Positions 1 to 64,000 of a stretch of DNA of 64,000 nt are shown here, in pieces. Position 1 is the first letter of the stretch, and each line of letters starts with the position of its first letter. The stretch comes from a virus (taxonomy: Duplodnaviria; Caudoviricetes). A model generated the notes under the pieces. It saw only the letters and a list, made by a program, of their open reading frames with translations. It did no database searches and was not told the DNA's origin. A program made the position numbers and the translations under genes. Location of the stretch: IMG/VR virus record IMGVR_UViG_3300001598_000002, positions 51,864 through 115,863 of that record; one strand, written 5' to 3'.

Positions 1-155
1 TCATCTTCATTGTATCGCTTGATATAGAGTTCATTATCATGTCCATTGTATCGCGTGCGCGCCATGTGTTCTTTAACTCCAATAGCTTCAATTAGATTGC
101 GCGCCCATCCAATAGCTTCTTCTTCTTTGGTATAGATAATAAACAGCGTCTTCAT
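1..155 (-). CDS. Small hypothetical protein, truncated by the window edge (MKTLFIIYTKEEEAIGWARNL...)
   Basis: Read manually. ATG at 155 on the - strand follows a purine-rich RBS (AAGGAAG) and the frame is open to position 1. Confidence 0.55.
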   Translation of the reverse strand, partial: MKTLFIIYTKEEEAIGWARNLIEAIGVKEHMARTRYNGHDNELYIKRYNED

Positions 156-238
156 TGATATAGCTTCCTTTCTTGTTACGATAGGTGATACTTGTTACTA
201 CTAATACAGTGCATTGGTGCCCGGGCGGACCGGATGGC

Positions 239-643
239 TTAGGCTCTCGCTCTAAGCCATTCGACCATCTCTCTGCCCTCTGCTTTGAGTCTCATCTTAA
301 CCGCTCCGCCATTGGACTGGCTCTCTCTTGTGACCGTTCCGAAGAGGCTTGCAAACTCAAACCACTCGTCAGCGCTCATCAGGTACATCACGGTGAAGCT
401 GGCATTTACATAACCGTAGCGGTTAGCACCATCCATTGCGATGTGAGCCTTGATGTCAGTGCCGTGGCAAACCGTAGCGCGTGCGCTCTTGATTTGGATG
501 TCACCGCAATCACCGCCAGCGGTGAAGGGCTTGTTATCAGCCTTGCACACCTCACCCGTGAGCGTGTAGCGTGCGACTTGTTCGGCGTGCTGTCCGTTGT
601 TCTTGTACTGTCTGGTGAGTTCTTTGAGTTCGATAGTAGTCAT
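239..643 (-). CDS. Hypothetical early protein, possibly a PD-(D/E)XK nuclease fold
   Basis: 134-aa ORF with an RBS (GGAAAGGA) and a consensus promoter upstream. Contains the motif GDCGDIQIKS. GC is about 50%, above the window average. Confidence 0.7.
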   Translation of the reverse strand: MTTIELKELTRQYKNNGQHAEQVARYTLTGEVCKADNKPFTAGGDCGDIQIKSARATVCHGTDIKAHIAMDGANRYGYVNASFTVMYLMSADEWFEFASLFGTVTRESQSNGGAVKMRLKAEGREMVEWLRARA

Positions 644-678
644 TTGAGTGACCGTCCTTTCCTTACCTTGTGACTATA

Positions 679-707
679 TTATACACCCGGGTTTCGGATT
701 TGTCAAG
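679..707 (-). promoter_or_regulatory. Consensus sigma70/sigmaA promoter TTGACA-N17-TATAAT
   Basis: The - strand reads TTGACA aatccgaaacccgggtg TATAAT, upstream of 239..643. Confidence 0.85.
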
Positions 708-945
708 GGGTTTTTGAAAAAAAATAAAAAAATTTTTTTAATTATTTTTTCTGTGATTTGTGGCGCGGTCGTGTTGTGGTGGGGCGGGTCGGTCTGGCTT
801 AGGTGCAGGCCGTAGGCCGGGGTAGGTTTTGGGAACTTCAGCACTTTAGTGTGATAAAGTGGACGGCCCTGGAGCATTTTCCTTACGAAACAAAAATTAT
901 AAAATTCCCTATGAAATAAAATTTTATTTCTCCTATCCCGAAAAC

Positions 946-974
946 TTGAATTTTACCCCAAAATCGTGTATAAT
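946..974 (+). promoter_or_regulatory. SigmaA-type promoter TTGAAT-N17-TATAAT
   Basis: TTGAAT tttaccccaaaatcgtg TATAAT, upstream of 1051..2382 and divergent from the promoter at 679-707. Confidence 0.75.
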
Positions 975-1050
975 GTAATTAAAGAATAAAAGAAGCCAGT
1001 CCTATCTGGCACATTAAAGGAGAGGCCAGACCTGATCTGGCGTATTAAAA

Positions 1051-2382
1051 ATGAGTCAAAATCGCTTAAATTTAAATTGGAAAATTTCGCTTCGTGATGA
1101 ACGTGCTCAGTTCATCCAAGATTATATACGTGCAATTCCTTTTACCCCAACAGATGAAGAACTTGAAATGATGGGCAACTACATTCTTTGGGGAAAACTC
1201 AATCAATCCGATAAAGACGGTCCATCCCGATTAAAAGACGAAGGTCTTTATATACCTACTCGCGCAAATGATTGGGTAGATGATAATGTAGAAAGTTTAG
1301 ATGCACTTATCGAAACACCTGGTTTTACGGAAACTCAAATCCTTGCGCCAGGTATGCCTCCCACCAAAAAAGTACGTCAAGTTTTTTCACGTGAAGAAGC
1401 TCGAAAATCTGCGCCGCCTGATATTCTTTCATCACTCGAATCGCTTTGGCGCCAAATTGATCAACTTGAACTCATCATCTCTTTCTATGATCTTCATCAT
1501 CAACGTCGAACCGCGCCAATTCGTCAACCTCTACTCGATCGTTTCACGCAATTAGAACTTCAACAATTACAAGAACGCGCCCAATCTCTTAAACAGTACA
1601 ACTACTTTAAACTTAAACATCAATTAATCGAATTGCGCCAACAGCAATATACATATCAAGATTCTTATAAACAAACAATCTTACCACAAAATGAACGCGC
1701 TCCGCACATTGAGGAAGAACCACTTCAATTTGGTACAGATATAACTGTTTTACCATTTGGTATTCATTATGCGCGCCCGATTTTTGATAAAATTTTTAAT
1801 CAAACGCGTTTTCCAATTCCATCTGACTTTTCAGAAAATGAACTTAATGAACTTTCTTCAATTTTATGGAGTCGCGCGCCACAAAACCAACAAATCTTTG
1901 ATTTTACAAATCCACAACATTTATATCAACTTTATAATTTATTTTCCGAGTTTATTATTGCAGAAGAAGATTCAAAAGATCAACTAAATCAAACACTTCA
2001 TCAATTTTTACAGGTTGCGCGCACATATCAATCTTTAACAAAACTTGAACCATTCCAACAAGACATACTTAACCTAAAAATTCAAAAAAAATCTAACCAA
2101 GAAATCTCACAATTTATTGAAGAAAAATATCATCATAAATATCAATTCAATTATATTTCAACTCTTTATTGTAAAAAAATTTTACCTCAAATTGCAGAAA
2201 CTGCCGCTTTTCATAAAGAAGTTTGTGAAAATTTATTTTTCCCGGAGAACTTCAAAAAGTGTATTGACTGTGGAGAAATTCTACTTTTAACTGAAAAGAA
2301 TTGGGTGCGTAGACGGCGCGCCAATGATGGATTTGCGCCAAGATGTAAAAAATGTGAAAAAATTAGGCGCAAAGGAGGATAA
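1051..2382 (+). CDS. Putative DNA-binding or transcription regulator (sigma region-4-like HTH plus C-terminal Zn ribbon)
   Basis: LEPFQQDILNLKIQKKSNQEISQFI resembles a sigma4/LuxR HTH. CIDC...CKKC at the C-terminus. Confidence 0.5.
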   Translation: MSQNRLNLNWKISLRDERAQFIQDYIRAIPFTPTDEELEMMGNYILWGKLNQSDKDGPSRLKDEGLYIPTRANDWVDDNVESLDALIETPGFTETQILAPGMPPTKKVRQVFSREEARKSAPPDILSSLESLWRQIDQLELIISFYDLHHQRRTAPIRQPLLDRFTQLELQQLQERAQSLKQYNYFKLKHQLIELRQQQYTYQDSYKQTILPQNERAPHIEEEPLQFGTDITVLPFGIHYARPIFDKIFNQTRFPIPSDFSENELNELSSILWSRAPQNQQIFDFTNPQHLYQLYNLFSEFIIAEEDSKDQLNQTLHQFLQVARTYQSLTKLEPFQQDILNLKIQKKSNQEISQFIEEKYHHKYQFNYISTLYCKKILPQIAETAAFHKEVCENLFFPENFKKCIDCGEILLLTEKNWVRRRRANDGFAPRCKKCEKIRRKGG

Positions 2383-2649
2383 ATGAAAGAAACATTAACA
2401 CAAAAATTTATTAAAGAGATTGCAAGGATTAAATCTCCTGAAGTTTTTTTAGGGGTTGCACGAGTTTTAAAGGTGCAATTAATGGAAGATAAAGAAACCC
2501 CATATGAGTTTACTAAAATTTTTAGTGATACAGTAGAGGCTTTTGATAAAGCAGGCCGTGCTCGAAAAAAAGAACTTCTTAAAATTTTAGTTCAAGCTAA
2601 TCAGTATAAGGAGTGTGAGGTAAATGGCGGTACAAAAGAAAAAAATTAA
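2383..2649 (+). CDS. Hypothetical protein
   Basis: 88-aa ORF with AAAGGAGG RBS, translationally coupled to the upstream gene. Confidence 0.75.
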   Translation: MKETLTQKFIKEIARIKSPEVFLGVARVLKVQLMEDKETPYEFTKIFSDTVEAFDKAGRARKKELLKILVQANQYKECEVNGGTKEKN

Positions 2650-3226
2650 AGATTTTGAAAACTATTATATTTATAGTGATGGCCGTGTTCAAAATTGTAA
2701 TACCAATCATTTTTTAAAATATGCCTCTGATAAGAATGGTTATTTAAAAGTACGTTTATATAAAGATAAGCATCAACATACTTTATTAGTACACAGACTG
2801 GTTGCTTTGACATTTTTACCAAATCCAGATAATTATCCACAAGTTAATCACAAAGACGAAAATAAACATAATAATGATATATCTAATTTGGAATGGTGTA
2901 CCATTAAGTATAATGCTAACTATGGTACAAGAAATGAGCGAATACAAAAGCAATTAAAGCAAAACGCCACTTTGCCAGACAATCGGAAAAAGGTTAATAT
3001 GTATACATTAGACGGAACCTTTATACGTCAGTTTGATAGTCTAAAAGAAGCAAAAATATTTTTAAATAAGCCAATTACTGAAGCTCATATTTCACAATGC
3101 TGTAATGGAATTCGTAAGACCGCTTATGGATATAAATGGATAAAAGCTTCTGAATGTAATGGAGGTGATTATTATTCCTATTGTTCCAAAAATTCCACAG
3201 AAACAGTTTCTAACCAAAAAATGTAA
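2624..3226 (+). CDS. Free-standing HNH homing endonuclease (HNH_3 plus NUMOD1-like DNA-binding domain)
   Basis: VHRLVALTF...QVNHKDENKHNNDISNLEW HNH motif. C-terminal FDSLKEA...ISQCCNG..KTAYGYKW is NUMOD1-like. Confidence 0.92.
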   Translation: MAVQKKKIKDFENYYIYSDGRVQNCNTNHFLKYASDKNGYLKVRLYKDKHQHTLLVHRLVALTFLPNPDNYPQVNHKDENKHNNDISNLEWCTIKYNANYGTRNERIQKQLKQNATLPDNRKKVNMYTLDGTFIRQFDSLKEAKIFLNKPITEAHISQCCNGIRKTAYGYKWIKASECNGGDYYSYCSKNSTETVSNQKM

Positions 3227-24187: not shown

Positions 24188-25066
24188 ATGAAACAAGATT
24201 TTTTTGGCTTCCAGTACTGTGGAGTCCATACCTCTGATCTAAACATAGTTCGTGTTAGTGACGGCTCTCGATATAGTGAGAATTTATCTCCTGTATTCCA
24301 AGATAAGACCGCACAAATGCCAGGGAGTGATGGAACACTGTACTGGGAGTCTTTTGATGTTAATAAGCCATGGCCAATTCAAGTGGCGTTTGACGAGTTA
24401 AGTGAGGCACAATATAGACGTTTGCGCCAAGTCTTTAATGGAAAGGCTATTGGAGAATTAATTTTTGATGAACTGCCATTTAAGGCATATACTGCAAAAG
24501 TACAGTCTCCTCCTCAATTTAAAACTATTTGTTTTGATACACCAGATGGTACGCGTGTCTATAAAGGCGAAGGAACTATTAATTTTATTGCTTATTATCC
24601 ATATGCAAAAAGCGTATATAAATTTTTAAATGAATTTAGTGATGAAGAATATGATAATAAAGTGCAATGGGCGGCCGCGTCTGGTATGAAACCAACTCGT
24701 GCGTCATATGATGGAACTGGTACTACTATTAATCTTTATAATGCAGGGGATCTTGAAACGGATTGGCAAGCATTCTATCCAATTAATTCATCTGGTTCTG
24801 CACTGACATCTATTTCACTTAATAGTGGTGTAGATGGTCAAATGGTATTTTCTTCCATTTCGCGCAAGAAAACCAATGATGCGTATATCCGAATTAATTC
24901 TCGAACTAATTTAATTGAAGGATGTGATTCTTCTAAAAATCCAACTGGAAGTTTATATAATGAATTTTTAGTTGCTGGTGATTTCTTTAAAATTCCATTA
25001 GGAGAGTCTACATTTGTCTCAAATACGGGATGTAGTGAGATTAAATATGATTATTTATATTACTAA
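24188..25066 (+). CDS. Distal tail protein (Dit-like)
   Basis: Immediately after the TMP. GF.Y.G...DL and GELIFDE.P.KAY motifs, C-terminal Y.YLYY. Confidence 0.75.
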   Translation: MKQDFFGFQYCGVHTSDLNIVRVSDGSRYSENLSPVFQDKTAQMPGSDGTLYWESFDVNKPWPIQVAFDELSEAQYRRLRQVFNGKAIGELIFDELPFKAYTAKVQSPPQFKTICFDTPDGTRVYKGEGTINFIAYYPYAKSVYKFLNEFSDEEYDNKVQWAAASGMKPTRASYDGTGTTINLYNAGDLETDWQAFYPINSSGSALTSISLNSGVDGQMVFSSISRKKTNDAYIRINSRTNLIEGCDSSKNPTGSLYNEFLVAGDFFKIPLGESTFVSNTGCSEIKYDYLYY

Positions 25067-35512: not shown

Positions 35513-35551
35513 ATGTTTCGCGCGAAGGCTTGGACTTTCGCGCGAGGCATT
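35513..35551 (+). terminator. Hairpin or terminator
   Basis: AATGTTTCGCGCGAAG ... TTTCGCGCGAGGCATT inverted repeat after 32393..35497. Confidence 0.6.
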
Positions 35552-35625: not shown

Positions 35626-37179
35626 ATGGCTGAAAGGACTCGGTTAGATTTTACAGGGCCAGAGATTGATGATATTCTTGAAGGTATTGAGTCTCATGTG
35701 TCTTTTGCAATTGAACAAGAAACTGATGCCACACAAAAGGCACGAGCGCGAACTAACATCGGCGCGCAAGGCGAAGTTGATGCTGTTGAGACAGTAGAAC
35801 AAGATCGTACTGATGCAGAAAGGACACGCGCACGAACTAATATTGGCGCAGTTGCACCAGATGCCATTAATGAAGTGGCACAAACCAGCAGGGAGTTAGA
35901 TAATACATTAAATAATAAAATTGATTTTACTCAAGCACAGGAATTAAGTGCCGAGCAACATCGACAAGTTCAAGAGAATTTGGGGTTAAATATTAAAGAG
36001 AAGACTTCTAAAATGATTTTACCAGTAGGTAGAGATAGTAGTGGTAAGCTTTGGACTTATGATATGTCTAAACCATTAAACCCAGATACATGGGAAGATG
36101 TTGGTAAGATTCTTGAGAGAGGTCTGGCATCAGAATATTGGGAACCTGGTGACCAGTTAAAAGTAAAGAAGACTATTGGTTCTACTACTGAGGAATTAAT
36201 TTTTGATATTCTTGGATTTGATTATGATACACCTATTGATGCGAATATTAAGCACACGATGAGCCTGGCAATGCATAGCGTCTATAGTTATAATGAAATT
36301 CCTTTTGACCCGGTAGAAGCTACTTTCTATTTTGCAAATGGGTTGCCTGCAGGCACCTATACCTATAAGTATAATGGTACTGACTATTCCTTTACGTTAA
36401 CAACTGGATGGAGTCCCAATACGCAAGTTACTGGTTCTACTGCTCAGTTGACACCTTATATTAAAGGCGCACTTAATGCTTCTGGCGAAGAAACGCCAAC
36501 CGCGGCTGCGGGTACAGAAGGAACTTCTTTAGGTACTGCTGTAAATAATACTGGTAGTTCTACAACTCTTACAATTAATGGTGTTAATTATCCTGTCGAA
36601 ATGAATGCATGTTATAGAGTCTCTTATGGGTCAAATAGATGGGAAACTTCAAGTGATCGTCAATACTTAAATAGTAATGCTGCGGGCGCTGCTTCTGGTC
36701 AGATTGCTAGTTGGTGGACACCTCAAACTGGATTTGATAGACCCACTAAATCCACTAAACCAGGTTTCCTTTATGGTATTGAACAAGGATTTTTAGATTT
36801 ACTTGTAGATGTAAAGAAAAGAACTCGTTTATTTAATGCGGGTGATGTTACTGGAACATATAAAGATAGTGACGAAAAGGTATTTTTCCTTTCACAGACA
36901 GAAGTCAATTTAAATATGGAAGGTAATGTAAGAGAGAATTCATTTGGTACTGACAGAACTTTTACAAATGTACTTACTACACCTTACCCTTTATATGTCG
37001 GAGCTGGAAATGCTGATAGAATTAAGTACCAAGGATCTACTGCAAGATATTGGTGGCTTCGTGGTCCTTATCCGTCTAGCGCTCGCACTGTTCGTGGTGT
37101 CAATACGGATGGTAGTTTGGGCAGCGGCTATGCCAGCGGTTCCGGTGGCGTTGTCCCGGCCCTGTGCGTAGGACGCTAA
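35626..37179 (+). CDS. DGR target protein 1 (receptor-binding; C-terminal C-type-lectin-like/DUF6273-type domain carrying VR1)
   Basis: Ends YWWLRGP...GGVVPALCVG. The 3' end matches the TR. N-terminal Q..ARTNIGA repeats. Confidence 0.88.
   Translation: MAERTRLDFTGPEIDDILEGIESHVSFAIEQETDATQKARARTNIGAQGEVDAVETVEQDRTDAERTRARTNIGAVAPDAINEVAQTSRELDNTLNNKIDFTQAQELSAEQHRQVQENLGLNIKEKTSKMILPVGRDSSGKLWTYDMSKPLNPDTWEDVGKILERGLASEYWEPGDQLKVKKTIGSTTEELIFDILGFDYDTPIDANIKHTMSLAMHSVYSYNEIPFDPVEATFYFANGLPAGTYTYKYNGTDYSFTLTTGWSPNTQVTGSTAQLTPYIKGALNASGEETPTAAAGTEGTSLGTAVNNTGSSTTLTINGVNYPVEMNACYRVSYGSNRWETSSDRQYLNSNAAGAASGQIASWWTPQTGFDRPTKSTKPGFLYGIEQGFLDLLVDVKKRTRLFNAGDVTGTYKDSDEKVFFLSQTEVNLNMEGNVRENSFGTDRTFTNVLTTPYPLYVGAGNADRIKYQGSTARYWWLRGPYPSSARTVRGVNTDGSLGSGYASGSGGVVPALCVGR
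37063..37159 (+). repeat. DGR variable repeat VR1
   Basis: 97 nt, 89/97 identical to the repeat at 40086-40182. Confidence 0.92.
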
Positions 37180-37309
37180 TGTTAATGAGTTCGCTTTAAA
37201 ATTTCGCTTTATCACTAAAATCACCAAAAATTTTGAGGAGTCTTTTTACTTCTCTACTTAATAATAGAACGGGTAAAGACTCCTCTAATTCTTATATAGG
37301 AGGCATATA

Positions 37310-39127
37310 ATGGCAGAATATGTATTAGCCATGACCGGTGAAGCAGTTAATGCCGCACTTACTAAGGCACAAACTGACGTTTCATTTAGTCAAGCGCAGT
37401 CATTAACCGATGCGCAAAAAGCAATTGCACGAAATAATATCGGTGCAATGGAAACTAAATCAGTTGTTGAATATACTACTCAATCCTTAAACGATCAGCA
37501 AAAACAAGTTGCTCGTCAAAATATTGGTGCAGGCAGTGCAACAGACGTTACTACTCTTGGCACCACAGTAAGTAATCTTCAAACCGCTTCTGGTCATAAA
37601 CTTGATTATACACAAACACAGACTTTAACGGATGCTCAAAAAACTCAAACTCGTCAGAATATTGGACTAAATCCAGTTGCTTCTGATGTATCTATGACAA
37701 TGCCAGTTGGTATTGATGCCAATGGACAATTATGGGCAGAATCTCTTGAAGAACCAGATATTACGAATTGGGCACAAGTCGCACAAATTATTAAGTCTGG
37801 CGCAGCATCCAAATTTTTTGAAGCAGGTGATCAGTTTGTTGTTAACAAGGCAACTTCTGTAACTGCTGCAGTTAAGGGTAATATTACTGGCGCGACAGTA
37901 AGTCTACCAACATTTATTACTCAAATGAATGAAGCTGAAGCTAAGTCTTATACTTTTTCATTTATTAATGGTCAATGGGTTTATAATGGTAATGCAGTTA
38001 TATTAAGTGATTACGGTATTACTGTTACTGGTACTCCTGCAAGTTTAGATACAATTGTTATTACAGAAACAATTGAAAAAATTACTTTTGACGTATTAGA
38101 TTTTGATTATGATACACCTGTCACCGAAGGAATTAATCATACAATGAGTTTGCTTGCTCATGATGTATATAGTTATAGCGAAATTCCTTTTGATGCAAGT
38201 GAAGCATTATTTTATGTAGATCCAGAAACTTATCCAAGTGGATTACCAGTTGGAACTTATCATGTAACACTTGACCATGGTACATATGGTGAGAGCACTG
38301 CTCAAGATGGTACATATCAATTTACTACAACTCAAATTGTTCCTGCTGGCGGATTAATTCGTCATACTACGATGGGTGTTTATCAATCTAGCAGTTATAC
38401 AAAGGCACAGATTACTGGCGGTAAATTTGTTACTTATAATACTGAATATACTCAACTTGAATCGTTAACTACTACAGAAGGTTCTGGCGGTACTTCATTA
38501 GGCACGACTACTGCGCGTAGGCAATCTTATCGTACTAATGAATTATTGAATTTTACCGAAAGGAATGCTTATGGTTCCAATAACTGGTTAAATTCAAGCG
38601 ATCGTCAGTATTTGAATTCTGACGCGGCTGGTGCTGCATCTGGCGCAATTGCAAGTTGGTGGACTTCTAAAAATATTTGGGATATGCCAGTTAAGTCTAC
38701 TAAACCTGGTTTCTTATATGGCTTAGATCCATCTTTCCGTGCAATTCTTCAAACTGTTAAAAAGAGAAATAGATTAACACTTGCAGATTATGGTAGTAGT
38801 TCTGTTAAGCATATTGATAATGATGAAAGAGTTTTCTTTGTATCTCAAACAGAAGTTAATTTAACTCGCGAAGATAGTGTATATGAGAACTCTTTTGGAA
38901 CTGATAAGACATTTACTACTATTAAGACTACTCCTTATGCACTTTATGCATCTGCTGGAAACGCTGATAGAATTAAGTATCAGAATGGAACGGCTCGTTA
39001 TTGGTGGCCTCGTGGTCCTCGTCCGTCTTACGCTGGCCGTGTTCGTCTTGTATATACGGATGGTAGTTTGGACTACAACAATGCCAGCGATTCCAGTGGC
39101 GTTGTCCCGGCCCTGTGCGTAGGATAA
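37310..39127 (+). CDS. DGR target protein 2 (paralogue of target 1, carrying VR2)
   Basis: Same C-terminal domain (SSDRQYLNS.AAGAASG.IASWWT, KSTKPGFLYG). Three QSLTDAQK..RQNIG repeats. Confidence 0.88.
   Translation: MAEYVLAMTGEAVNAALTKAQTDVSFSQAQSLTDAQKAIARNNIGAMETKSVVEYTTQSLNDQQKQVARQNIGAGSATDVTTLGTTVSNLQTASGHKLDYTQTQTLTDAQKTQTRQNIGLNPVASDVSMTMPVGIDANGQLWAESLEEPDITNWAQVAQIIKSGAASKFFEAGDQFVVNKATSVTAAVKGNITGATVSLPTFITQMNEAEAKSYTFSFINGQWVYNGNAVILSDYGITVTGTPASLDTIVITETIEKITFDVLDFDYDTPVTEGINHTMSLLAHDVYSYSEIPFDASEALFYVDPETYPSGLPVGTYHVTLDHGTYGESTAQDGTYQFTTTQIVPAGGLIRHTTMGVYQSSSYTKAQITGGKFVTYNTEYTQLESLTTTEGSGGTSLGTTTARRQSYRTNELLNFTERNAYGSNNWLNSSDRQYLNSDAAGAASGAIASWWTSKNIWDMPVKSTKPGFLYGLDPSFRAILQTVKKRNRLTLADYGSSSVKHIDNDERVFFVSQTEVNLTREDSVYENSFGTDKTFTTIKTTPYALYASAGNADRIKYQNGTARYWWPRGPRPSYAGRVRLVYTDGSLDYNNASDSSGVVPALCVG
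39014..39110 (+). repeat. DGR variable repeat VR2
   Basis: 97 nt, 78/97 identical to the repeat at 40086-40182. Confidence 0.92.
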
Positions 39128-39164
39128 GTTCGCTTGATAAGTTTGCTTTAAAATTTCGCTTAGT

Positions 39165-39650
39165 ATGGAGGAATTACAAATGATTTATATTTCCCAAAAA
39201 GAAAAAATCCGTAGCCTCCAACGTGAAAATGAGGCTCTCCGTGCCAAAGCTACTGACACGGAGTTAGCCTCCAATATTACATTTGTTACTCTTGCAGAAA
39301 ATGGCGCGATTGATGAAGTCACGGCTACAGAACACTTAAGTGTATTTGCTGCTTGGGAACCAGGTGTAGCATATTCCGTTGGTATGCTTCGTAAATATGA
39401 AGATGTTTTATATAAATGTGTTCAAGCACACACTTCACAGATTGATTGGTCACCAGATAAAACCCCTGCATTATGGGCGAAAGCCGGTGATCCTGCGGTT
39501 GAATATCCTGAATGGTCTCAACCTATTGGCGCACAAGATGCTTACATGACCGGAGATAAAGTGTCTCATTCCAACAAGCATTGGGTATCTACTGTTGATA
39601 ATAACGTGTGGGAACCTGGTGTTTATGGATGGGAAGAAGTAACTGAATGA
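39165..39650 (+). CDS. Carbohydrate-binding module protein (CBM5/12, ChiC-BD-like)
   Basis: AWEPGVAYSVG...YKCVQAHTSQ.DW.P...PALW and AY..GDKVSH..KHWVS..DNNVWEPGVYGW. Confidence 0.8.
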   Translation: MEELQMIYISQKEKIRSLQRENEALRAKATDTELASNITFVTLAENGAIDEVTATEHLSVFAAWEPGVAYSVGMLRKYEDVLYKCVQAHTSQIDWSPDKTPALWAKAGDPAVEYPEWSQPIGAQDAYMTGDKVSHSNKHWVSTVDNNVWEPGVYGWEEVTE

Positions 39651-40063
39651 GCGTCCGTTCTGGAGATCGCTCCCAAGGTCATGTACAAGTTTTAAATTCA
39701 ATGCGCATATTGGAAGAATATACATTTCAAATTTGCATGAATGAAAATATTTTTCCTAATGAAATTGGTTTAGTATTTGCTTTGCAAATATTAGATAAAT
39801 GTTTGGATGCTGGTGCGGAGTTAGCAGATGCTTTTCATACAAATCCAATCTTGCCGGACGATTTGCTTACAAGGCGGGCGCACCAGACCGAATGTCATTC
39901 ACACCTAAATTCTTTACTTCATTTAATCGAAAATGCTTGGAAAGCATGCCATATTCCGTCACGGCGGATCGAATATTGGACCGGTTTGGTTGTTGTAACC
40001 GAGAAGAATTTAGATGTTTGGATAGCTTCAGACTTAAGGCGATATAGACGCCTAACAAAATAA
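39647..40063 (+). CDS. avd: DGR accessory variability determinant (Avd-like four-helix bundle)
   Basis: 138 aa directly upstream of TR and RT. MSV...YT..IC.NE..FP and RR..Q...IEYWTGLV...W..SD..RY pattern of Bacillota Avd proteins. Confidence 0.8.
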   Translation: MSVRSGDRSQGHVQVLNSMRILEEYTFQICMNENIFPNEIGLVFALQILDKCLDAGAELADAFHTNPILPDDLLTRRAHQTECHSHLNSLLHLIENAWKACHIPSRRIEYWTGLVVVTEKNLDVWIASDLRRYRRLTK

Positions 40064-40085
40064 TAAGTCTTCAGATATTTACTAC

Positions 40086-40182
40086 GGTCCTAATCCGTCT
40101 TACGCTCGCAATGTTCGTAGTATCGGTACGGATGGTAGTTTGGGCAGCGGCTATGCCAGCGGTTCCGGTGGCGTTGTCCCGG
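40086..40182 (+). repeat. DGR template repeat (TR), positionally canonical but adenine-depleted
   Basis: Non-coding copy between avd and RT. Diverges from the VRs at the 3' end (CCCGGACTGT vs CCCGGCCCTGT), as expected for IMH*/IMH. Confidence 0.88.
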
Positions 40183-40373
40183 ACTGTATATGGTAGCGGC
40201 GTAGATAAATACTCAATCGCTCCATAATACACTATATAAAACTTCTGCACAGAAACTATCTACAGAAACTACTAAAATATACAGGGAGTAAATGTCCGGC
40301 CTCCGAGTTATCCATAAAATAGGAGGGAACAGTTTAATGACGTAGTTGTCGCTTTGTAGAACTACTATTAGCA

Positions 40374-41459
40374 TTGATGTTGAGAGTTATGAAAAAGAAT
40401 GAATATTTTGATGATGCAATCTCATTTGAGAATTTATATAGTGGATTAAGGAAAAGTTGCCGCAATGTTCGGTGGAAAGATAGCGTCGTTACTTATGAAT
40501 TTAACGGCCTAAAGAACACCTATAACTTGCGGCAACATTTTTTAGATGAAACCTATGAGATTAGTCCATATCATGAATTTATAATTTATGAACCTAAAAT
40601 AAGAGAGATTGTTGCTACTCGTATTCGAGATAGACAATTTCAGCGTTCATTATGCGATAATGGATTATATGTAGATTTAACGGAATCTTTTATTAAAGAG
40701 AATCCTGCTTGCCAGCGTGGTAAAGGTAATGATTGTGCATTAGATTGCTTGACACAAAACTTATGTAAATATTATCGTGAACATGGTAATATTGGTTGGT
40801 TTTTAAAGTGTGATATTCATCATTATTTTCCATCAACAGACCATGAAATTGCATCAAAAGCAATTCATAAGCGTACTACTGATTCAAGGGCGGCCGCGGC
40901 TGTAGATCAGATTATTGATTCTTTTGGTCATGATGGTGTTGGTATTGGCCTGGGTAGTCAAGTTAGTCAATTAATTGAACTTTGCATTTTAGATGATTTA
41001 GATCATTTTATTAAAGAAAAACTTCATATCCATTATTATGTTCGATATATGGATGATTTTGTATTAATTGATCCAGATAAACAAAAACTTGAATGGTGTT
41101 GGAAACAAATTGAACTCTTTTTAAAGGATTATAAACTTGAATTAAATGAAAAAACTACATTACAACCATTGAGTTCCGGAATTCGATTCTTAAAATGGCG
41201 TTTTGTATTAACTGAAACTGGTCGCGTCTTACGCTTAATGGACTATAACAAAGTTACCGTTGAAAAGCAAAAGCTTCAAAAACTTTGGGCAAGAGAGCAA
41301 GAAGGTACTGTACCAGTTGGCGCGACAGAGGGAAGTCTTGATTCATGGATCGCTAATGCAGACCGCGGCGATACATTTGCATATAAAAAAGAGTTGGTTA
41401 CATTTTACTGTCGTCTTACAAATCGACAATATAAATATAAGAAGAAAAAGAAAGGATAG
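40374..41459 (+). CDS. DGR reverse transcriptase
   Basis: LKCDIHHYFPS, GIGLGSQVSQ (the DGR-type GxxxSQ motif) and YVRYMDDF. Start may be ATG 40377 or 40389. Confidence 0.95.
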   Translation: MMLRVMKKNEYFDDAISFENLYSGLRKSCRNVRWKDSVVTYEFNGLKNTYNLRQHFLDETYEISPYHEFIIYEPKIREIVATRIRDRQFQRSLCDNGLYVDLTESFIKENPACQRGKGNDCALDCLTQNLCKYYREHGNIGWFLKCDIHHYFPSTDHEIASKAIHKRTTDSRAAAAVDQIIDSFGHDGVGIGLGSQVSQLIELCILDDLDHFIKEKLHIHYYVRYMDDFVLIDPDKQKLEWCWKQIELFLKDYKLELNEKTTLQPLSSGIRFLKWRFVLTETGRVLRLMDYNKVTVEKQKLQKLWAREQEGTVPVGATEGSLDSWIANADRGDTFAYKKELVTFYCRLTNRQYKYKKKKKG

Positions 41460-41481: not shown

Positions 41482-41865
41482 TTATTCAGTAATAAACGGG
41501 AAAAGTAGATCAAATTCTTCAATAGATAACTCTAATTTATCTAATTCTTCAAGAGTAAAACTTACATCTGGAACATCTACATCTAAATTCCATAATTCAT
41601 TACATTTTTCTTGAACTAAATCAATATATTCTTTTTGTAACTGAACTCCAGTCCCATTATCAATCATCTTCGGCGCGCCTGTCTCATCACGTTCTGCATA
41701 TTCCATAATTAACTTATTTAATTCTTCACTATAAAATCGTGCTTCTTTATCAAGAACATTAAATAATTTACTAAATTTATATGCAGTTTTAACTGGAAGA
41801 ACCTGCGCCTTAACTTTTTGATAGATTGGATTAAGGTTCAATACTTTTGCCATTTTAATTTGCAT
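41482..41865 (-). CDS. Hypothetical protein
   Basis: 127-aa acidic helical ORF coupled to the upstream resolvase gene. Confidence 0.75.
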   Translation of the reverse strand: MQIKMAKVLNLNPIYQKVKAQVLPVKTAYKFSKLFNVLDKEARFYSEELNKLIMEYAERDETGAPKMIDNGTGVQLQKEYIDLVQEKCNELWNLDVDVPDVSFTLEELDKLELSIEEFDLLFPFITE

Positions 41866-41869
41866 TTCC

Positions 41870-42589
41870 TTACTCCCAATTTACAATTTCAGTTTTCTTT
41901 TTATGTGTGTCAGAAACATATTTTCCAATACCAACAGCATCCGCAATATCATCACTAACACTTACATCATACCATTCTTTTACAAGTAATTGCATTGATT
42001 TTTTACGATCTGCTCTTGCCTTCCCCTTAACTCCACAGTGCGCGCGCCATGTATTTGTTGGACAAATAATATACGGAATATTTAATTCAATACATAAATC
42101 CATTAAAATACCTTGTAAACGTGCGAGTGTTTGGAATGTTGTAACACCCATATTCTGTTGAAATTGAATACCTTCAATTCCTACAATATCTGGCTTCCAA
42201 TTATTAATCATAGAAATTAGCCAAATTCGGATCTCATGAAAACGTTTTCCTTCGTCTTCACCTTCTACTACAAATGTTCCATAAGTAGTTAATTGATTCC
42301 CATCAAAAATACTGTATCCAGTAGTATATGATGCTTGATCTAAAGCCAGAATACGATTTTCACCTTTTGGTTTGGGTTTAATGATATTCAAATTTTGCTT
42401 AAACTGGTTTTGTTTGCATACAGGACATTCGCGCTTGGTGCGCAGATGCGCCCAATTGGCATATACTAAATGACCTTCTGGGCATTGAAACTGCATCTGC
42501 GCATCTAAATTTTGATAGTCTGTAGATACAACTTTCCAATTATCTTGCGCGAGTTCCTGCACGATATCCTCTAATTTTATTCGTGCCAT
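41870..42589 (-). CDS. ruvC: RuvC-like Holliday junction resolvase with N-terminal Zn ribbon
   Basis: ILALDQAS..TGYS, GIEG and DDIADAVGIG catalytic motifs. CPEGH...CPVC at the N-terminus. Confidence 0.82.
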   Translation of the reverse strand: MARIKLEDIVQELAQDNWKVVSTDYQNLDAQMQFQCPEGHLVYANWAHLRTKRECPVCKQNQFKQNLNIIKPKPKGENRILALDQASYTTGYSIFDGNQLTTYGTFVVEGEDEGKRFHEIRIWLISMINNWKPDIVGIEGIQFQQNMGVTTFQTLARLQGILMDLCIELNIPYIICPTNTWRAHCGVKGKARADRKKSMQLLVKEWYDVSVSDDIADAVGIGKYVSDTHKKKTEIVNWE

Positions 42590-42607
42590 TCACTCACTTT
42601 CCATTAA

Positions 42608-43507
42608 TTATTTTAAGCCAGTACTTCCAAAACCACCATTACGATTGTCTCCAATTTCTTGGACGCTATCGACGCGATAAAATGCGACTTTTGGAACTTC
42701 ACAAAGCACTAACTGACAAAACTTTTCGCCCTTACCAATAGTAAAATCACGACCATACTCAATAGAAGTAATTTCCATATGGTCTATGAAACCATTCTCT
42801 TTCATAATTGTATTAGTTGTAATATCTCGAATAGGCGGTTCCACATTTTCAATAATTACTTTGATTTCATCGCGATAAGCCTGATCAATTGTGCCAGGAG
42901 TATTAGCCACTCTAAGCTTGGTCTTTAAGGCGCGGCCGCTCTTGGGACGTACTTGAAGTTCAAATCCTACTGGTAATGCAACCTTAATTCCAGTTGGAAC
43001 AAGAACCGTTTCACCTGGATGTACTGTAATATCATCAAGTGCATAAACATCCATTCCGCTATCACTAATATGGGCATACTGCGGAATTTTTGCATCAGGA
43101 TGACAAAGTTCAATAGCAACAGGCACATTTCGTTTAGCAATACCTTCAGTATCATTAATACAATTAACGATAGACGCAAGCATTTCCTTTAAGAAATCGC
43201 GTTTAGGTTTAGAAAGATTTGTCTTATCTACTTCATCACTAAGAGTTAAAAACGCTTCTGTGACATCTTCTGCTTTACCACCAGTTGCATTAAGGGCTTG
43301 GACAAGTGCAATTTTATCATTTGGATTGTTTAGAGACTGCTGATAGGATTGCATGATACCCGGCGCCAAAATCTCAAATTGGTCTTCTGGTACGCTTAAA
43401 AGACGAATAACTGAATCCATTAAATCATTGGCTTTAGTGTCATCTCCAACCACATTTTTCATTGTAGTAGTTAATTCATGAAGTTGATTCTTTGTAATAT
43501 CTGCCAT
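42608..43507 (-). CDS. dut: Trimeric dUTPase with N-terminal extension
   Basis: SGMDV, RPKSG, GTIDQAYR, KFCQL and RNGGFGSTG motifs I-V. Confidence 0.92.
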   Translation of the reverse strand: MADITKNQLHELTTTMKNVVGDDTKANDLMDSVIRLLSVPEDQFEILAPGIMQSYQQSLNNPNDKIALVQALNATGGKAEDVTEAFLTLSDEVDKTNLSKPKRDFLKEMLASIVNCINDTEGIAKRNVPVAIELCHPDAKIPQYAHISDSGMDVYALDDITVHPGETVLVPTGIKVALPVGFELQVRPKSGRALKTKLRVANTPGTIDQAYRDEIKVIIENVEPPIRDITTNTIMKENGFIDHMEITSIEYGRDFTIGKGEKFCQLVLCEVPKVAFYRVDSVQEIGDNRNGGFGSTGLK

Positions 43508-43725
43508 TAAACTAAATCCTCCCAAATGTCTCCAAAAATCTGAGTAATAGATACAATCCAGGCTTCAGCAATTATTTCGCCTTTTGCTTTTTTAGTCTTA
43601 TACTCATAACCAGCCTTCTTTACAATATATCCTTTTTGTGATGCTTCTGCGCGAAACTGTTCAATCATATCCTTTGCTGCGATTTCAGTTTCTGCACGAA
43701 ATTTACTTGTTGTTTCTAAAAGCAT
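43507..43725 (-). CDS. Hypothetical protein
   Basis: 72-aa ORF with AAGGAG RBS, coupled to its neighbours. Confidence 0.7.
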   Translation of the reverse strand: MLLETTSKFRAETEIAAKDMIEQFRAEASQKGYIVKKAGYEYKTKKAKGEIIAEAWIVSITQIFGDIWEDLV

Positions 43726-45765: not shown

Positions 45766-45766
45766 T

Positions 45767-46279
45767 TTAAAACTCCTTTGCTACAGTCTTTAGTTTTTCA
45801 ATCGCATCTTCAATATTGCTAACTAACCATCCACTTTGTTTAATTAATCCAGTAACATATAGATTTTGATAACTATACTGTTGCTCTCCAAGAGATTGTG
45901 CGCCGCCCCAGTTCTTCTCTGAAGAATGGGTTAGATACATTTGTCGATTATCAGTACAAATTCCAATAATATACTTATGATCACCACGGCGAATTTTTTC
46001 TCTAACCACGCCAATTTCTGCACTTGTACCTGCTGGGACCACATCCCCATCAATACAAGCAATTAGCACATCGGTCTTATCTAAGCGTTCATTGTCACCG
46101 TTAGCAATTTCTTGAGAGCCAGCAAACTTTTTTTTGCCTTCTGACCCGTTGATTTCTGTATTTTCGATTGGGCTATATAACTCAATTCCAGGAATGGCTT
46201 CTCTTATCTTTTTTGCCCATTCAGTATTACGTAACTGGTCCCCATAGCAAAAGATGCCTCCTGCTAAATATGCTTTCAT
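45767..46279 (-). CDS. Nucleoside 2-deoxyribosyltransferase or nucleotide N-hydrolase family protein
   Basis: YLAG..F, YSP, D...DVLIAC.DG...GTSAEIG and NLYVTG. Confidence 0.82.
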   Translation of the reverse strand: MKAYLAGGIFCYGDQLRNTEWAKKIREAIPGIELYSPIENTEINGSEGKKKFAGSQEIANGDNERLDKTDVLIACIDGDVVPAGTSAEIGVVREKIRRGDHKYIIGICTDNRQMYLTHSSEKNWGGAQSLGEQQYSYQNLYVTGLIKQSGWLVSNIEDAIEKLKTVAKEF

Positions 46280-55141: not shown

Positions 55142-55768
55142 TTAATGCTTTTTACTCCAAAGCCAATGCAACTTTGTTTCCTTTTCCACTTTTGTTAAAT
55201 CCCAATAATACCAAGCATAAGCCTGAATACTATCTGGTTTAATAGATAAATCACCGTTCTTATAACAAGCTACTCTATCTATATATACATATACATCAGA
55301 AGGTGGGTTATCTTTTAAAATATTGTTATATCTACCTTGCCCTTCTAAAAACTGAAGACGGCCAAACATAAGGACCCCTTTGGTTGCAATTTCTAAAGAA
55401 CGAATAACAAAAGGCTCAATTAATTTAAATGGAGGATTCATTATTACATAATCACTAATAAAATATGGATAGTCATCTGCTAAATAATCCAAACCATATG
55501 TTAAAACAAGATTAGAATTATTATACCCTCTATCTTTAATATCTGTTCCAATAATTTTGGTGGCACCATATTTTAAAATTCCTTCGATCATATGGCCGCC
55601 TCCACAACAAGGCTCTAAAATTGTAGAATCTTGAAGGTCTTCCTTATTGAGAATTTCTAAAATATTGGTTACCTCTTCGGTAGGTGTTGAATAATAGTCT
55701 AATGCTTCACGCTCTTTATGATTTTTGTCATAGGCAGAATATAAACCCTTTTTACTATATTTTCCCAT
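55142..55768 (-). CDS. Amino (N6-A/N4-C) DNA methyltransferase
   Basis: DYYSTP, LEPCCGGG (motif I) and MNPPF (motif IV). Start MGKYSK at 55768. Confidence 0.88.
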   Translation of the reverse strand: MGKYSKKGLYSAYDKNHKEREALDYYSTPTEEVTNILEILNKEDLQDSTILEPCCGGGHMIEGILKYGATKIIGTDIKDRGYNNSNLVLTYGLDYLADDYPYFISDYVIMNPPFKLIEPFVIRSLEIATKGVLMFGRLQFLEGQGRYNNILKDNPPSDVYVYIDRVACYKNGDLSIKPDSIQAYAWYYWDLTKVEKETKLHWLWSKKH

Positions 55769-55769
55769 A

Positions 55770-57515
55770 TTAAAACTCCAATAAATTATCTTCCATAATC
55801 TGATATTGTTCAATAAAGATTTGAGGAGTGACAGTACCGTTCCAATAATTAAGATTGGCCTTACCGACAACTTCCATTTTTATTTCGTCATACTGATTAA
55901 GTTCTTCAATCATATCTTTAGCAAAGAATTTCATATATGCGATACCATTTTTAACAATTTTAATAGTATCTTGATTTCTACCCATAATTTGAACATCTTT
56001 TCGTGTGAAATGAAGATCTTTAATATAAATTAATGGTTCATCGTTTTGTTGACTCCAAACATCTTTAAAATTAGCTAATTCAGTAATTAAATTACTTAAA
56101 TCGTCATTGAGCGCCTGACGTTCAAAATTTACTTCATAATAATCTTCGCCAAAATCATATTGCGCTAAATCTATATTCGCACGTCTATGAAGTTCATCTA
56201 AATCATTATTTTTAATACTACAACCCGCAGCATTGTCGTGTCCTTGTACATATTCAAATAATCCAGTAGAGTCAAGATACCCCTTAAAAGAAGATAATTC
56301 AGAATTAGATAAGCCACGAATAGAACCGCGTACATATCCTTGTGAATTCAGGCGTGCCACAATAGTTGGTCGCTTATATTTTTGACTTAATTGCATTGCA
56401 ATTAATCCATTTAATTCACTTGGAAATTTATCTTCATCATCGAGACGTACAAAAAGAATTTTATTTTCTAATAAGTCATGTTTAAAGATCTTTTGTTCAA
56501 GGCGCGCTACCGCATCATCCTTAAACTTGTTTTGATGGGTACGCGCATTAACACATTCTCGTGTTGATTCAATAGCAGCCTCTTCAAATGTGCCTTTCGC
56601 GCCACGTTTTAGGCATGGAATCATTTTATGCCCATCGAGGAATGCGGTTAACATACGCTGTTTTTCTTCCATTGTACCAACTCGTACCATTGCATTAATT
56701 AATGGTACAATATAAAATGCTACTGAAATTGGATTTAATGCTTTAATTAATTCATTATCACTTGGATTCATCGCACCGGTAATAGAATAGCCTTGTTTGC
56801 GCGCGATAGAAAGAAAGAAATAATTATTAATTTGACTAAATCCCTTTTTCCATAAATATTGATTTTCAATTTCTAGACCACTCATCATATCGCCGCAGAT
56901 TCCTAATGCTGCTAGGTCGATATAATCATCTGCCCAAGTATGCTCAAAATAATAATCCATTGCCCTACAAAATTGATAGGCCATACCCGCGCCAGACAAA
57001 TTTTTGTTTTCATATTTATCAGAAAGTTGATTATTAATTACTACTAAATTGGCTGCAAAATTGGTATCTTCTACAATATGGTGATCAATTACAAGAATAG
57101 GACAATCAATCTCTTTAGCATAATTAGAATCATTACTACCTGCATCTGGTACAATGACTAAATCATAATGCGAATCTCGAATATCTTCCCAATGTTCCTC
57201 TAATCCATGCGCTTTTCCATCATGAATATAATAAGAAATATTAAAATTATTTGAATGTCGTTTAAGATACTGCCCAATAATAGAGGCACTTGTAAAACCA
57301 TCAACATCACAGTCAACAATAATACCAATATTGGCTTCTGGTGTTAATTTACTAATAAGATTAATACCATCATCAATACAATTTAAATCGCGCCAAGATT
57401 GTAAGCAATATTCATTCGGATAAAGGAAACACTCTACATCTTTTACGCCTCGGGCGCGGAGTAAATTGCGCCCATAATCAGATGTAATTGAATCATTAAT
57501 TAATTTAATTTTCAT
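55770..57515 (-). CDS. recJ: RecJ-like ssDNA exonuclease (DHH)
   Basis: DCDVDG, HG, PDAG, IDHH, RGSIR and QGHDNAAG. Confidence 0.92.
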   Translation of the reverse strand: MKIKLINDSITSDYGRNLLRARGVKDVECFLYPNEYCLQSWRDLNCIDDGINLISKLTPEANIGIIVDCDVDGFTSASIIGQYLKRHSNNFNISYYIHDGKAHGLEEHWEDIRDSHYDLVIVPDAGSNDSNYAKEIDCPILVIDHHIVEDTNFAANLVVINNQLSDKYENKNLSGAGMAYQFCRAMDYYFEHTWADDYIDLAALGICGDMMSGLEIENQYLWKKGFSQINNYFFLSIARKQGYSITGAMNPSDNELIKALNPISVAFYIVPLINAMVRVGTMEEKQRMLTAFLDGHKMIPCLKRGAKGTFEEAAIESTRECVNARTHQNKFKDDAVARLEQKIFKHDLLENKILFVRLDDEDKFPSELNGLIAMQLSQKYKRPTIVARLNSQGYVRGSIRGLSNSELSSFKGYLDSTGLFEYVQGHDNAAGCSIKNNDLDELHRRANIDLAQYDFGEDYYEVNFERQALNDDLSNLITELANFKDVWSQQNDEPLIYIKDLHFTRKDVQIMGRNQDTIKIVKNGIAYMKFFAKDMIEELNQYDEIKMEVVGKANLNYWNGTVTPQIFIEQYQIMEDNLLEF

Positions 57516-62697: not shown

Positions 62698-62767
62698 AAT
62701 AATTTCTCCTTAAAGTTTTGTTAAATTTGTTTTAATTAATGATTTTGTTACATTTAAGAGAAGGAAA

Positions 62768-62791
62768 GGGGATTCGGAGAACCGAATCCCC
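62768..62791 (-). terminator. Intrinsic terminator
   Basis: GGGGATTCGG-agaa-CCGAATCCCC, with TTTCCTT following on the - strand. Confidence 0.8.
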
Positions 62792-62807
62792 ATTTGAACT
62801 ATATAAA

Positions 62808-63062
62808 TTAGTCCTCGTCCTCAGAAGGAACAAAATTAAGACCAGCATCGGTAAGAGTAACAATAGTAATCTTCTTACCGTCTTCAGTCTTACCACCATC
62901 TTCAGTGGTAGCCAGACCATTCTTTACAAGACTATTAACGCGTCCAGTAACAGAAGCGATCTTTTCGAGGCCAAGGCCCTCCATAATTTCAGAAGTCTTG
63001 CAGCTACCGCCATGATTCTTAATGTAATCAAATGCTTCCTGAGTCTTTTCCTTAAGTACCAT
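62808..63062 (-). CDS. Winged-helix DNA-binding protein
   Basis: TSEIMEGLGLEKIASVTGRVNSLVKNGL...LTDAG is MarR-like. Confidence 0.7.
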   Translation of the reverse strand: MVLKEKTQEAFDYIKNHGGSCKTSEIMEGLGLEKIASVTGRVNSLVKNGLATTEDGGKTEDGKKITIVTLTDAGLNFVPSEDED

Positions 63063-63167
63063 AATAATCTCCTTTTATCCGCCTTTCATTTATTTTTAAT
63101 TTTATTTTTTATTATTCGTTGGGCGGCCAACTACTTTTTGAAAGTCTTTTCTTAACTTTCTATATAT

Positions 63168-63196
63168 AGTATATCAGAAAATTCTGATATTTTCAA
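63168..63196 (-). promoter_or_regulatory. SigmaA-type promoter TTGAAA-N17-TATACT
   Basis: Seen on the - strand. The spacer is itself palindromic (ATATCAGAA..TTCTGATAT). Confidence 0.7.
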
Positions 63197-63199
63197 ATT

Positions 63200-64000
63200 T
63201 TATAAGCTAGCCAAATTCATTACTTTTGAATTTTCAGCTAATTTAATTGCTCTAACTCCTTGTGCGCCCCTACCTAAAATAGGTACATCATTAAGTTTTA
63301 AACGAATTTGCGCAATAGATGATACCACTAAAATGTCATTATCATTATAGAGCGGCAAAAAATCACATAAGTTTTCAACTTTTTGAAGTTTTACACCTTT
63401 GGTCGCGCGCCCTGTAAGTTTAAATTCAGAGATAGAACTACGCTTTATATATCCATCCTCTGACACAGAAGCAATTTCTTTAGTTTCAGTTCCAATTACT
63501 TTTGCGCTTATGACTTCGTCGCCTTCGTTAAGTTTCATTCCAATTACGCCACGCGCAACTCTTCCAATGGCATTAATGTCATCTGTTTTAATCATAATGA
63601 ATTGACCTTGCATAGAAGCAATACCAATTTTATCATTATCAGTTAAAATAATTGATGCAATTTGATCGCCTTCATCGAGTTTAATGGCGGTCGCGCCAGT
63701 ATTGCGCTTTAGATTATATTCATCCAATTCAGATTTCTTTAAAATACCATTTTTCGTAACAAAAATTATATATTTTTTTCTACGAGATTTATCACAAATT
63801 GCCGCTGAAACAATACGTTCATAAGGAAGTAAATTTACAAAATTATAAAGATATTGTTTTTCATCAATAACAAAATCACTCATTTTGGTATGATAGAAGT
63901 TGCCATGTGAAGTAAAGAAAAGAATTTCATCGGTATTCTTTCCAATAATACTATCAATTATAAATTCTTCTTTATCAAGTTTAAACTTTGTGCCAACACC
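63200..64000 (-). CDS. gyrA: DNA gyrase/topoisomerase II subunit A, C-terminal pinwheel (5' part outside the window)
   Basis: Repeated GR..GV..IKL blades. The frame stays open to position 64000. Confidence 0.88.
   Translation of the reverse strand, partial: GVGTKFKLDKEEFIIDSIIGKNTDEILFFTSHGNFYHTKMSDFVIDEKQYLYNFVNLLPYERIVSAAICDKSRRKKYIIFVTKNGILKKSELDEYNLKRNTGATAIKLDEGDQIASIILTDNDKIGIASMQGQFIMIKTDDINAIGRVARGVIGMKLNEGDEVISAKVIGTETKEIASVSEDGYIKRSSISEFKLTGRATKGVKLQKVENLCDFLPLYNDNDILVVSSIAQIRLKLNDVPILGRGAQGVRAIKLAENSKVMNLASL

Follow-up and report, generated by a model that had tools for sequence, protein, structure and literature searches.

The 64,000-nucleotide stretch analysed here (hereafter the window) comprises bases 51,864-115,863 of a complete virus record of 115,863 bp with direct terminal repeats (IMG/VR record IMGVR_UViG_3300001598_000002, labelled G000), and it carries an excess of short words in which G and C alternate. 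GC content is 34.9% in the window and 34.3% in the whole genome. The gene content is that of a large siphophage of the Gram-positive type, with a terminase 42% identical to that of Geobacillus virus E3, a tape-measure open reading frame (ORF) of 2,635 aa, tail and Dit/Tal-like proteins and a diversity-generating retroelement (DGR) cassette. The minus arm encodes nucleotide metabolism (dUTPase, dCMP deaminase, uracil permease, nucleoside deoxyribosyltransferase, NrdD/NrdG) together with replication and recombination functions (RuvC, a DnaE-type polymerase, RecJ, a primase-like protein, DnaB and GyrA). Near-identical DNA is present in metagenomes from horse, pig and other animal gut, manure, a bioreactor and landfill. 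The word excess and the two dense stretches that the original prediction had named are the following:

1..64000, no strand: excess of alternating G/C words with a GCG/CGC core (GCGC, CGCG, GCGCGC), part of a signature spanning the 115.9-kb genome
1051..2382, plus strand: dense gene of 443 aa with a C-terminal sigma-factor-like match, 18 GCGC in 14 sites
41580..43700, minus strand: dense stretch with RuvC-like and dUTPase genes, 14 GCGC in 11 sites

Magnitude of the excess

We found 292 GCGC in the window against 59.4 expected from base composition (4.9x), as well as 200 CGCG (3.4x) and 46 GCGCGC. Over Markov expectations the GCGC excess of the window is 2.86x at first order and 1.34x at second order. 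The whole genome holds 556 GCGC in 115,863 bp, about 4800 per Mb, and 90 GCGCGC against 2.9 expected (~30-fold), or 777 per Mb. GCGC density is even along the genome, with 3-21 per 2 kb. The original prediction, made from the window alone, had counted 14 separate GCGC-containing sites in 1051-2382 and 11 in 41580-43700 and had claimed an excess in both arms; our recount agrees, and the excess proved stronger than claimed. A tandem repeat behind the ~64-nt spacing of sites in 1051-2382 was looked for and none was found.

The null models comprised composition, first- and second-order Markov chains, synonymous-codon and whole-codon shuffles of each gene, and within-segment shuffles of intergenic DNA, and the excess survives every one of them. 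In the coding DNA of the whole genome, GCGC occurs 508 times against 223 in synonymous-codon shuffles (2.3-fold, z 23-24), so codon-preserving shuffles do not reproduce the counts and the words are indeed built from synonymous choices, as had been supposed; whole-codon shuffles give 165 (z 30). Coding GCGCGC reaches 84 against 18 in synonymous-codon shuffles (z 16), and two octamers taken up below deviate in the same way (GGCGCGCC 10 against 1.1, z 8; GCGGCCGC 5 against 0.5, z 7). Among the 256 tetramers, none exceeds the synonymous shuffle by nearly as much as GCGC, and CGCG and GGCG come next. Each of the three codon registers is enriched (2.1x, 2.1x and 2.8x), which bears out the proposed independence of reading frame. 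Between genes, 48 GCGC stand against 8.3 expected (z 14), or 29 against 5.7 once the regulatory region is excluded, and the overall intergenic enrichment is 5- to 6-fold over within-segment shuffles (z 10-14), with hairpin stems holding only 12 of the 89 intergenic sites. The same pipeline gave z near 0 on three distant relatives used as negative controls. The excess is real and acts at the level of the DNA itself.

Anatomy of the signal

The original prediction had spoken of GC-only palindromes as a class, and this part does not hold. None of GGCC, CCGG, GGGCCC and GCCGGC exceeds expectation, and the non-palindromic CGCGCC/GGCGCG (66 per word) is comparable to the palindromes GCGCGC (90) and CGCGCG (61). 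The basic unit is the alternating step GCG/CGC. No trimer is more over-represented than this pair, which stands at 2.0x the expectation from composition and 1.5x that of the first-order model, and third-order Markov expectations account for most hexamer and octamer counts. The primary tetramer is GCGC, with CGCG enriched only when it overlaps GCGC: among isolated words flanked by A/T, CGCG occurs 42 times against ~43 expected and GCGC 79 times against 43 (1.8x).

Enrichment grows with tract length, all-G/C tracts of 5, 6 and 8 nt standing at ~4.5x, ~12x and ~100x, respectively. Tract growth is cooperative: a G or C comes next with probability 0.32 when the preceding base is A/T, climbing to 0.61 when seven G/C precede, and C follows GCG at a probability of 0.47 and CGCG at 0.52. 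The flanks are nearly free of information, apart from A being disfavoured at position -1. The 541 alternating runs are mostly short (286 of 4 nt, 150 of 5, 73 of 6, 20 of 7, 10 of 8 and 2 of 9 nt). Distances between sites follow an exponential, Poisson-like distribution (coefficient of variation 1.05) with slightly too many long gaps. The asymmetry between a word and its reverse complement does not exceed the G>C skew of the coding strands, and no polarity was found between the genome halves.

Two octamers had been singled out, and all ten positions given for them are exact:

24671..24678, also 28192, 40890, 42932 and 45425, no strand: GCGGCCGC, five copies in the window
2315..2322, also 7373, 28849, 41672 and 58848, no strand: GGCGCGCC, five copies in the window

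In the whole genome GCGGCCGC occurs 6 times against 0.46 under the third-order Markov model, hence with some excess of its own, and it is lineage-specific (6 copies in G000 and 12 in the relative G402, none in the relatives G410, G404 and G423). GGCGCGCC occurs 11 times against 5.0 and is largely a by-product of the lower-order excess; its counts are 11 in G000, 12 in G402, 1 in G410, 6 in G404 and 1 in G423. The NotI and AscI octamers are mostly by-products plus lineage drift.

Distribution among related phages

All 31 of the 31 IMG/VR loci whose terminase (TerL) is 57-100% identical to that of G000 show the excess (GCGC 2.1-6.1x, CGCG 1.4-4.7x), whereas GCGC is at 1.2x in two loci of 37-39% TerL identity (29% GC). 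The four relatives examined over their whole genomes deviate from synonymous shuffles with z 12-22, and GCGCGC reaches 183 and 188 copies in two relatives of 121 and 94 kb. An exact look-up of the TerL protein for further near-identical strains returned no match. Distant phages that share with G000 the pair of deoxyribosyltransferase and permease genes do not show the excess, and one of them (L057) was sampled in the same series as L061, which belongs to the clade.

The excess is common to clade members with different genetic codes. G402 (L069-L074) and G404 (L081-L087) are recoded at TAG, their coding density rising from 0.70-0.73 under table 11 to 0.92-0.93, and G000, G410 and G423 use the standard code. 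Recoded gut-phage clades have been described with a mixture of codes 11, 15 and 4, genomes of ~110-150 kb and animal guts as habitat (Borges et al., bioRxiv 10.1101/2021.08.26.457843); compared by description, the present clade resembles such clades ('Agate' is one) in recoding, habitat and genome size and may belong with them.

Other words vary within the clade. Over the loci L001-L033, GATC ranges from 0.02x, a near-total avoidance, to a normal 1.2x. In G000 the words depleted against the shuffle are CTAG (0.26), AGCT (0.56), GATC (0.62) and CAGG (0.56); AGCT is depleted in a few relatives only, and G410 and G423 have been purged of CGGCCG and CCGCGG. Such depletions of tetramers and hexamers look like footprints of restriction avoidance that vary by sub-lineage.

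Turnover of sites and newcomer genes

Individual sites are not stable. Compared with a strain at 96.5% identity, 19% of the GCGC sites are not shared, and at 88-91% identity the fraction is 20-33%. Sites are gained and lost on both sides, which indicates that density is kept, not position. In 160 cases of a non-shared GCGC the counterpart was GTGC/GCAC in 75 and ACGC/GCGT in 30, that is, transitions, chiefly at the inner CpG cytosine. At 9-12% divergence, GCGC is retained best among the GC-rich tetramers; G and C within GCGC/CGCG diverge by 0.18-0.32 at codon position 3, against 0.39-0.45 for other G/C, and in intergenic DNA 0 of 44 differ within the words against ~0.15 elsewhere.

Genes absent from three complete relatives show a weaker excess (3.4x vs 4.4-6.7x). 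The deoxyribosyltransferase genes stand at ~1x for GCGC, the HNH and methyltransferase genes hold none, and several of the longest word-free gaps overlap recently arrived or accessory genes. The elements concerned in the window include:

2624..3226, plus strand: HNH/NUMOD4 homing-endonuclease gene, inside a 1.2-kb gap free of GCGC and CGCG (2367-3584)
35626..41459, plus strand: DGR cassette with two DUF6273 targets, a CBM5/12 gene and a reverse transcriptase; accessory, ~2.3x against 4.4x in core genes
55142..55870, minus strand: strain-specific NPPF amino-methyltransferase gene, 0 GCGC and 0 CGCG in 729 nt

Newcomer genes being word-free and accessory genes weaker in words, the signature accumulates with residence time in the lineage.

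The uracil/xanthine permease and nucleoside 2-deoxyribosyltransferase pair (window 44506-46279, minus strand) is found on many phage contigs at identities down to 44%, among them L056, L057, L091 and L092, and is missing from the close strains L088 and L089. On one National Center for Biotechnology Information (NCBI) contig of a metagenome-assembled genome (MAG) that carries the pair, the recorded protein needs TGA to be read as W.

Possible origins of the signature

We tentatively favour, at a little less than even confidence, an origin in repair or fixation bias, which would produce a signature of the lineage with words that have no site-specific function. We favour it because the enrichment is graded by tract length, indifferent to palindromy and randomly spaced, and because sites turn over. 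Under this explanation a directional and cooperative fixation bias would act on duplex DNA resident in the lineage, so that a new G or C arising beside an existing GC step would be preferentially kept and existing ones would be lost more slowly. The agent that we think most likely would be mismatch correction biased by sequence context as the DNA replicates and recombines, comparable to the ratchet put forward for the alternate forms of the cyanobacterial highly iterated palindrome (HIP) but working without a methylase. Weak selection on a property of the duplex would yield the same pattern.

Several observations weigh against such a bias. GTGC/GCAC stands at 0.94-0.96 of the shuffle and is not depleted as a simple T:G-to-C:G repair ratchet predicts; a footprint of the very-short-patch (VSP) type, looked for in the same comparison, was not seen. 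A repair enzyme able to cause the bias was not found among the genes of the phage. Purifying selection would explain the lower divergence of G/C inside the words as well as biased repair does, and at 3.5% divergence the G/C of words is not protected at all (0.118 vs 0.127), the comparisons at 3.5% and at 9-12% covering different regions of the genome. Polarising the substitutions between G000 and L001 with outgroups of 74% identity gave 121 polarised changes out of 745, with 90 W>S against 27 S>W, and was discarded for parsimony bias. The gene calls come from a crude ORF caller. Finally, a signature mirrored from or imposed by the host, which we consider unlikely, would fit too, the bacterial sample covering a single phylum.

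A second explanation, for which we see a modest chance, is that the alternating-GC tracts are a selected word bound by a phage or host factor, as a mark of self, in compaction, or in the organisation of replication or packaging; the original prediction had likewise listed binding sites for a phage protein, an idea for which the data speak neither clearly for nor clearly against. The stronger conservation of G/C in words at codon position 3 and in intergenic DNA speaks for it, and so do the retention of GCGC as the best kept of the GC-rich tetramers at 9-12% divergence and the persistence of the trait throughout a deep clade that spans several animal hosts and two genetic codes; for HIP1, conservation of sites has been taken as selection (PMC5861425). 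On the other hand, the motif is undefined beyond 3-4 bases, isolated tetramers are barely enriched and enrichment rises smoothly with tract length, the spacing is random with a slight surplus of long gaps, 19% of sites differ already at 3.5% divergence, and no candidate binding protein was found. In its specific form, the tracts would be a methyltransferase-free mark of self in a widespread clade of large gut siphophages, about one per 200 bp, read by a phage factor or shielding the AT-rich genome from a host system; such a mark would be a viral counterpart of the cyanobacterial HIPs, and we regard this as somewhat improbable.

Phages commonly mirror the oligonucleotide usage of their hosts, and HhaI-type enzymes methylate the inner CpG cytosine of GCGC. 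A third explanation is that the phage mirrors a Firmicutes-like host, which would either show this excess in its own genome or carry out methylation of GCGC-type sites and repair of the T:G mismatches there; we give it the same modest chance as the second. Besides the general habit of following the host, the gains and losses of sites are mainly C<->T changes at the very cytosine that HhaI-type enzymes methylate. Moreover, each cyanobacterial alternate HIP, including GGCGCC and GCsGC, has a cognate host methylase (PMC4390886). To set against these points, GTGC/GCAC is not depleted, the trait stays constant between sub-lineages with sharply different footprints of restriction avoidance, mobile genes of the phage genome lack the signature, and non-enriched L057 shares its sample series with L061.

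None of the searches for the host led to one. Megablast of an 8-kb stretch against known phages gave no match, a contig scan of cellular genomes gave as its sole match a distant relative on a contig of an Izimaplasma MAG, the 'provirus' record G423 is phage throughout, the homologues of uracil permease and NrdD all lie on phage contigs, and an Atlas search with the lysin returned viral clusters only. The comparison with bacteria covered 401 genomes of one phylum, that of the Izimaplasma MAG with the distant phage relative. None attains the GCGCGC density of the phage (maximum 565 per Mb, against 777 per Mb in a genome of 34% GC), and the densest have 50-62% GC; among the twelve densest genomes examined (at least ~180 per Mb) GC content is 39-62%, and in the densest five 51-62%. 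Across prokaryotic phyla, alternating G-C hexamers are generally suppressed (Huang and Mrazek 2014, PMC4060949). Because of the densities in the 401 genomes and of this published suppression, a mirrored host signature becomes less likely, though it is still live.

A structural role, with the tracts as Z-DNA formers or as clamps that stabilise the duplex of an AT-rich genome, is very improbable. Strict G-C alternation is preferred, extension is cooperative and the signal is symmetric between strands, as such a role would suggest. The B-Z transition needs alternating purine-pyrimidine runs of roughly 8-12 bp or more, and 436 of the 541 runs are only 4-5 nt long while 12 reach at least 8 nt, too short for Z-DNA; nor is there any regular spacing.

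The original prediction had named an orphan methyltransferase at 55142-55768, whose ORF we place at 55142-55870, as the candidate partner in a HIP1-like methylation signature. We give this hardly any credence: for it speak the presence of the gene in the same genome and the cyanobacterial precedent, and its phyletic distribution refutes it. The protein matches the phage methyltransferase family phrog_799, and its motifs DYYSTP, EPCCGGG and NPPF stand in the order found in gamma-class exocyclic-amino methyltransferases. Enzymes of this class are mostly N6-adenine methyltransferases, and GCGC contains no adenine. Of 26 clade records searched in six frames, only G000 has a homologue; it is missing from the 25 others and thus from all 17 further genomes of at least 90% completeness, every one of them rich in GCGC, so the expected co-occurrence of enzyme and enrichment across relatives is not seen. 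The gene itself lacks both words where ~6 would be expected at the density of the genome. It sits in the slot between RecJ and DnaE (window 55142-57515; L088, L089, L090), a hot spot of mobile genes that varies between close strains and is occupied by the 208-aa NPPF methyltransferase, by a Dam-type methyltransferase (PF02086) or by GIY-YIG/LAGLIDADG endonucleases. A C5-cytosine methyltransferase (PF00145) was not found in G000 or in 25 relatives, and the positive controls of that search worked; the NPPF type is the one methyltransferase seen in the genome. The restriction to G000, the word-free gene and the variable slot mark the methyltransferase as a recent passenger, not a partner, and it plays no part in the signature.

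Other candidate modification genes are present. A Mom-family protein of 382 aa (genome 4832-5980, minus strand; PF25680, E 5e-40; L093) lies near a family-2 glycosyltransferase and a dNMP-kinase-like protein (L093:11780-13347), and the three hint at DNA base modification. As a cause of the word excess they were considered and rejected: three complete relatives lack the Mom-like gene, and a link to G/C words could be made for none of these genes.

Protection against a host nuclease of the AddAB/RexAB type by a Chi-like signal, also put forward in the original prediction, is rejected and deserves no more credit than the methyltransferase. Known Chi sequences of Firmicutes contain GCG (GCGCGTG in L. 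lactis, AGCGG in B. subtilis), and GCGCGTG is enriched 7.5x here. This heptamer ranks 10th among the 16 GCGCGNN words, with 8 copies forward and 8 reverse, and AGCGG is at expectation. Strand polarity, by which a Chi-like signal was to be recognised, is limited to what the G>C coding skew predicts, with no orientation bias by genome half.

That the excess is an artefact, whether of codon usage, of dipeptide content or of uneven local GC, has practically no chance, for although amino-acid order adds a little (223 in synonymous against 165 in whole-codon shuffles), such an artefact is refuted by z 23-30 against both shuffles, by all three frames, by intergenic DNA (z 10-14), by the even density and by controls with z near 0.

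Further features of the genome

The GyrA gene (window 63200-64000) is truncated by the end of the record, and GyrB is found at the start of the record (genome 2131-3981), which indicates that the linear record is cut within the gyrase operon, beside the terminal repeat. G000 has four or more genes for homing endonucleases of the GIY-YIG or HNH type, and tRNA genes were not found in it. Window 185-673 has 53% GC with overlapping ORFs on both strands; it gave no Pfam, PHROG or Rfam match, and GCGC is not in excess there for its own composition. At window 35518-35545, a pair of TCGCGCGA octamers directly behind the 1034-aa tail gene makes up a hairpin with a 9-bp stem that looks like an intrinsic terminator made from the same GC words.

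A different repeat lies mostly before the start of the window. Eleven copies of GCCCGGGC fall within 7 kb, where 0.09 would be expected (genome 45269-52082, window -6594 to 226), and one of them is inside the window at 219-226. Most copies lie between genes, at distances of 550-1500 bp, and the usual reading is TTG(C)-GCCCGGGC; relatives hold 19, 8 and 10 copies. The element resembles an operator or promoter repeated through the early-gene region.

Significance and comparison with known systems

Phage and prokaryote genomes normally avoid short palindromes and alternating G-C runs. The reverse holds for a deep and abundant clade of uncultured phages from gut and rumen, in which the excess forces rare codons into every gene. 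If biased repair is the cause, the clade would offer a clean natural case of a fixation ratchet that depends on context and shapes the genome of a virus, and would counsel caution in host prediction from k-mers and in motif hunting. If selection is the cause, phage biology would hold a so far unrecognised reader of (GC)n tracts. The signature also dates the residence of genes, the methyltransferase, the HNH gene and the DGR cassette being word-poor islands.

In E. coli, VSP repair leaves an excess of CCWGG and a deficit of CTWGG/CTAG. The phage shares with that footprint the excess of short symmetric words and the C<->T turnover, and the VSP excess is a non-adaptive product of repair; it differs in that there is no deficit of GTGC/GCAC, the effect is far larger and no equivalent of Vsr or Dcm was identified. 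Chi sites are likewise GC-rich and over-represented and share the GCG core. However, they are asymmetric and polar, whereas the phage signature is symmetric and GCGCGTG is not preferred. The class of hexamers and octamers termed GC6/GC8 by Huang and Mrazek (2014, PMC4060949) is generally suppressed in prokaryotes and enriched ~30-fold in the phage.

The closest known description is that of HIP1 (GCGATCGC) and the alternate HIPs of cyanobacteria, so the analogy drawn in the original prediction stands, while methylation by a phage enzyme, its other half, falls with the lack of a cognate methyltransferase in the clade. Alternate HIPs include all-GC words such as GGCGCC in Calothrix PCC 7103 and GCsGC in Cyanothece PCC 7822 (Elhai 2015, PMC4390886). 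In both cases short GC-rich words reach at least 1000 per Mb (GCGC ~4800 and GCGCGC ~780 per Mb in the phage), they are independent of frame, lie within and between genes and are specific to lineages, and their cause is debated between a by-product of biased repair and selection. Elhai proposed a methylation-dependent mismatch-repair ratchet for the alternate HIPs, with the words possibly by-products (PMC4390886), and Xu et al. (2018) argued for selection on HIP1 from the conservation of its sites (PMC5861425). Unlike HIP, the phage has a graded family of words in which non-palindromes are equal to palindromes, not one dominant palindrome of 5-8 nt; its sites are Poisson-spaced, the 10-90 kb periods reported for HIP1 being beyond the reach of a 116-kb genome; and the carrier is a virus, not a cyanobacterium. 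Neither the genome nor its clade has a cognate methyltransferase, and a HIP-like signature in a genome that encodes none bears directly on the HIP debate.

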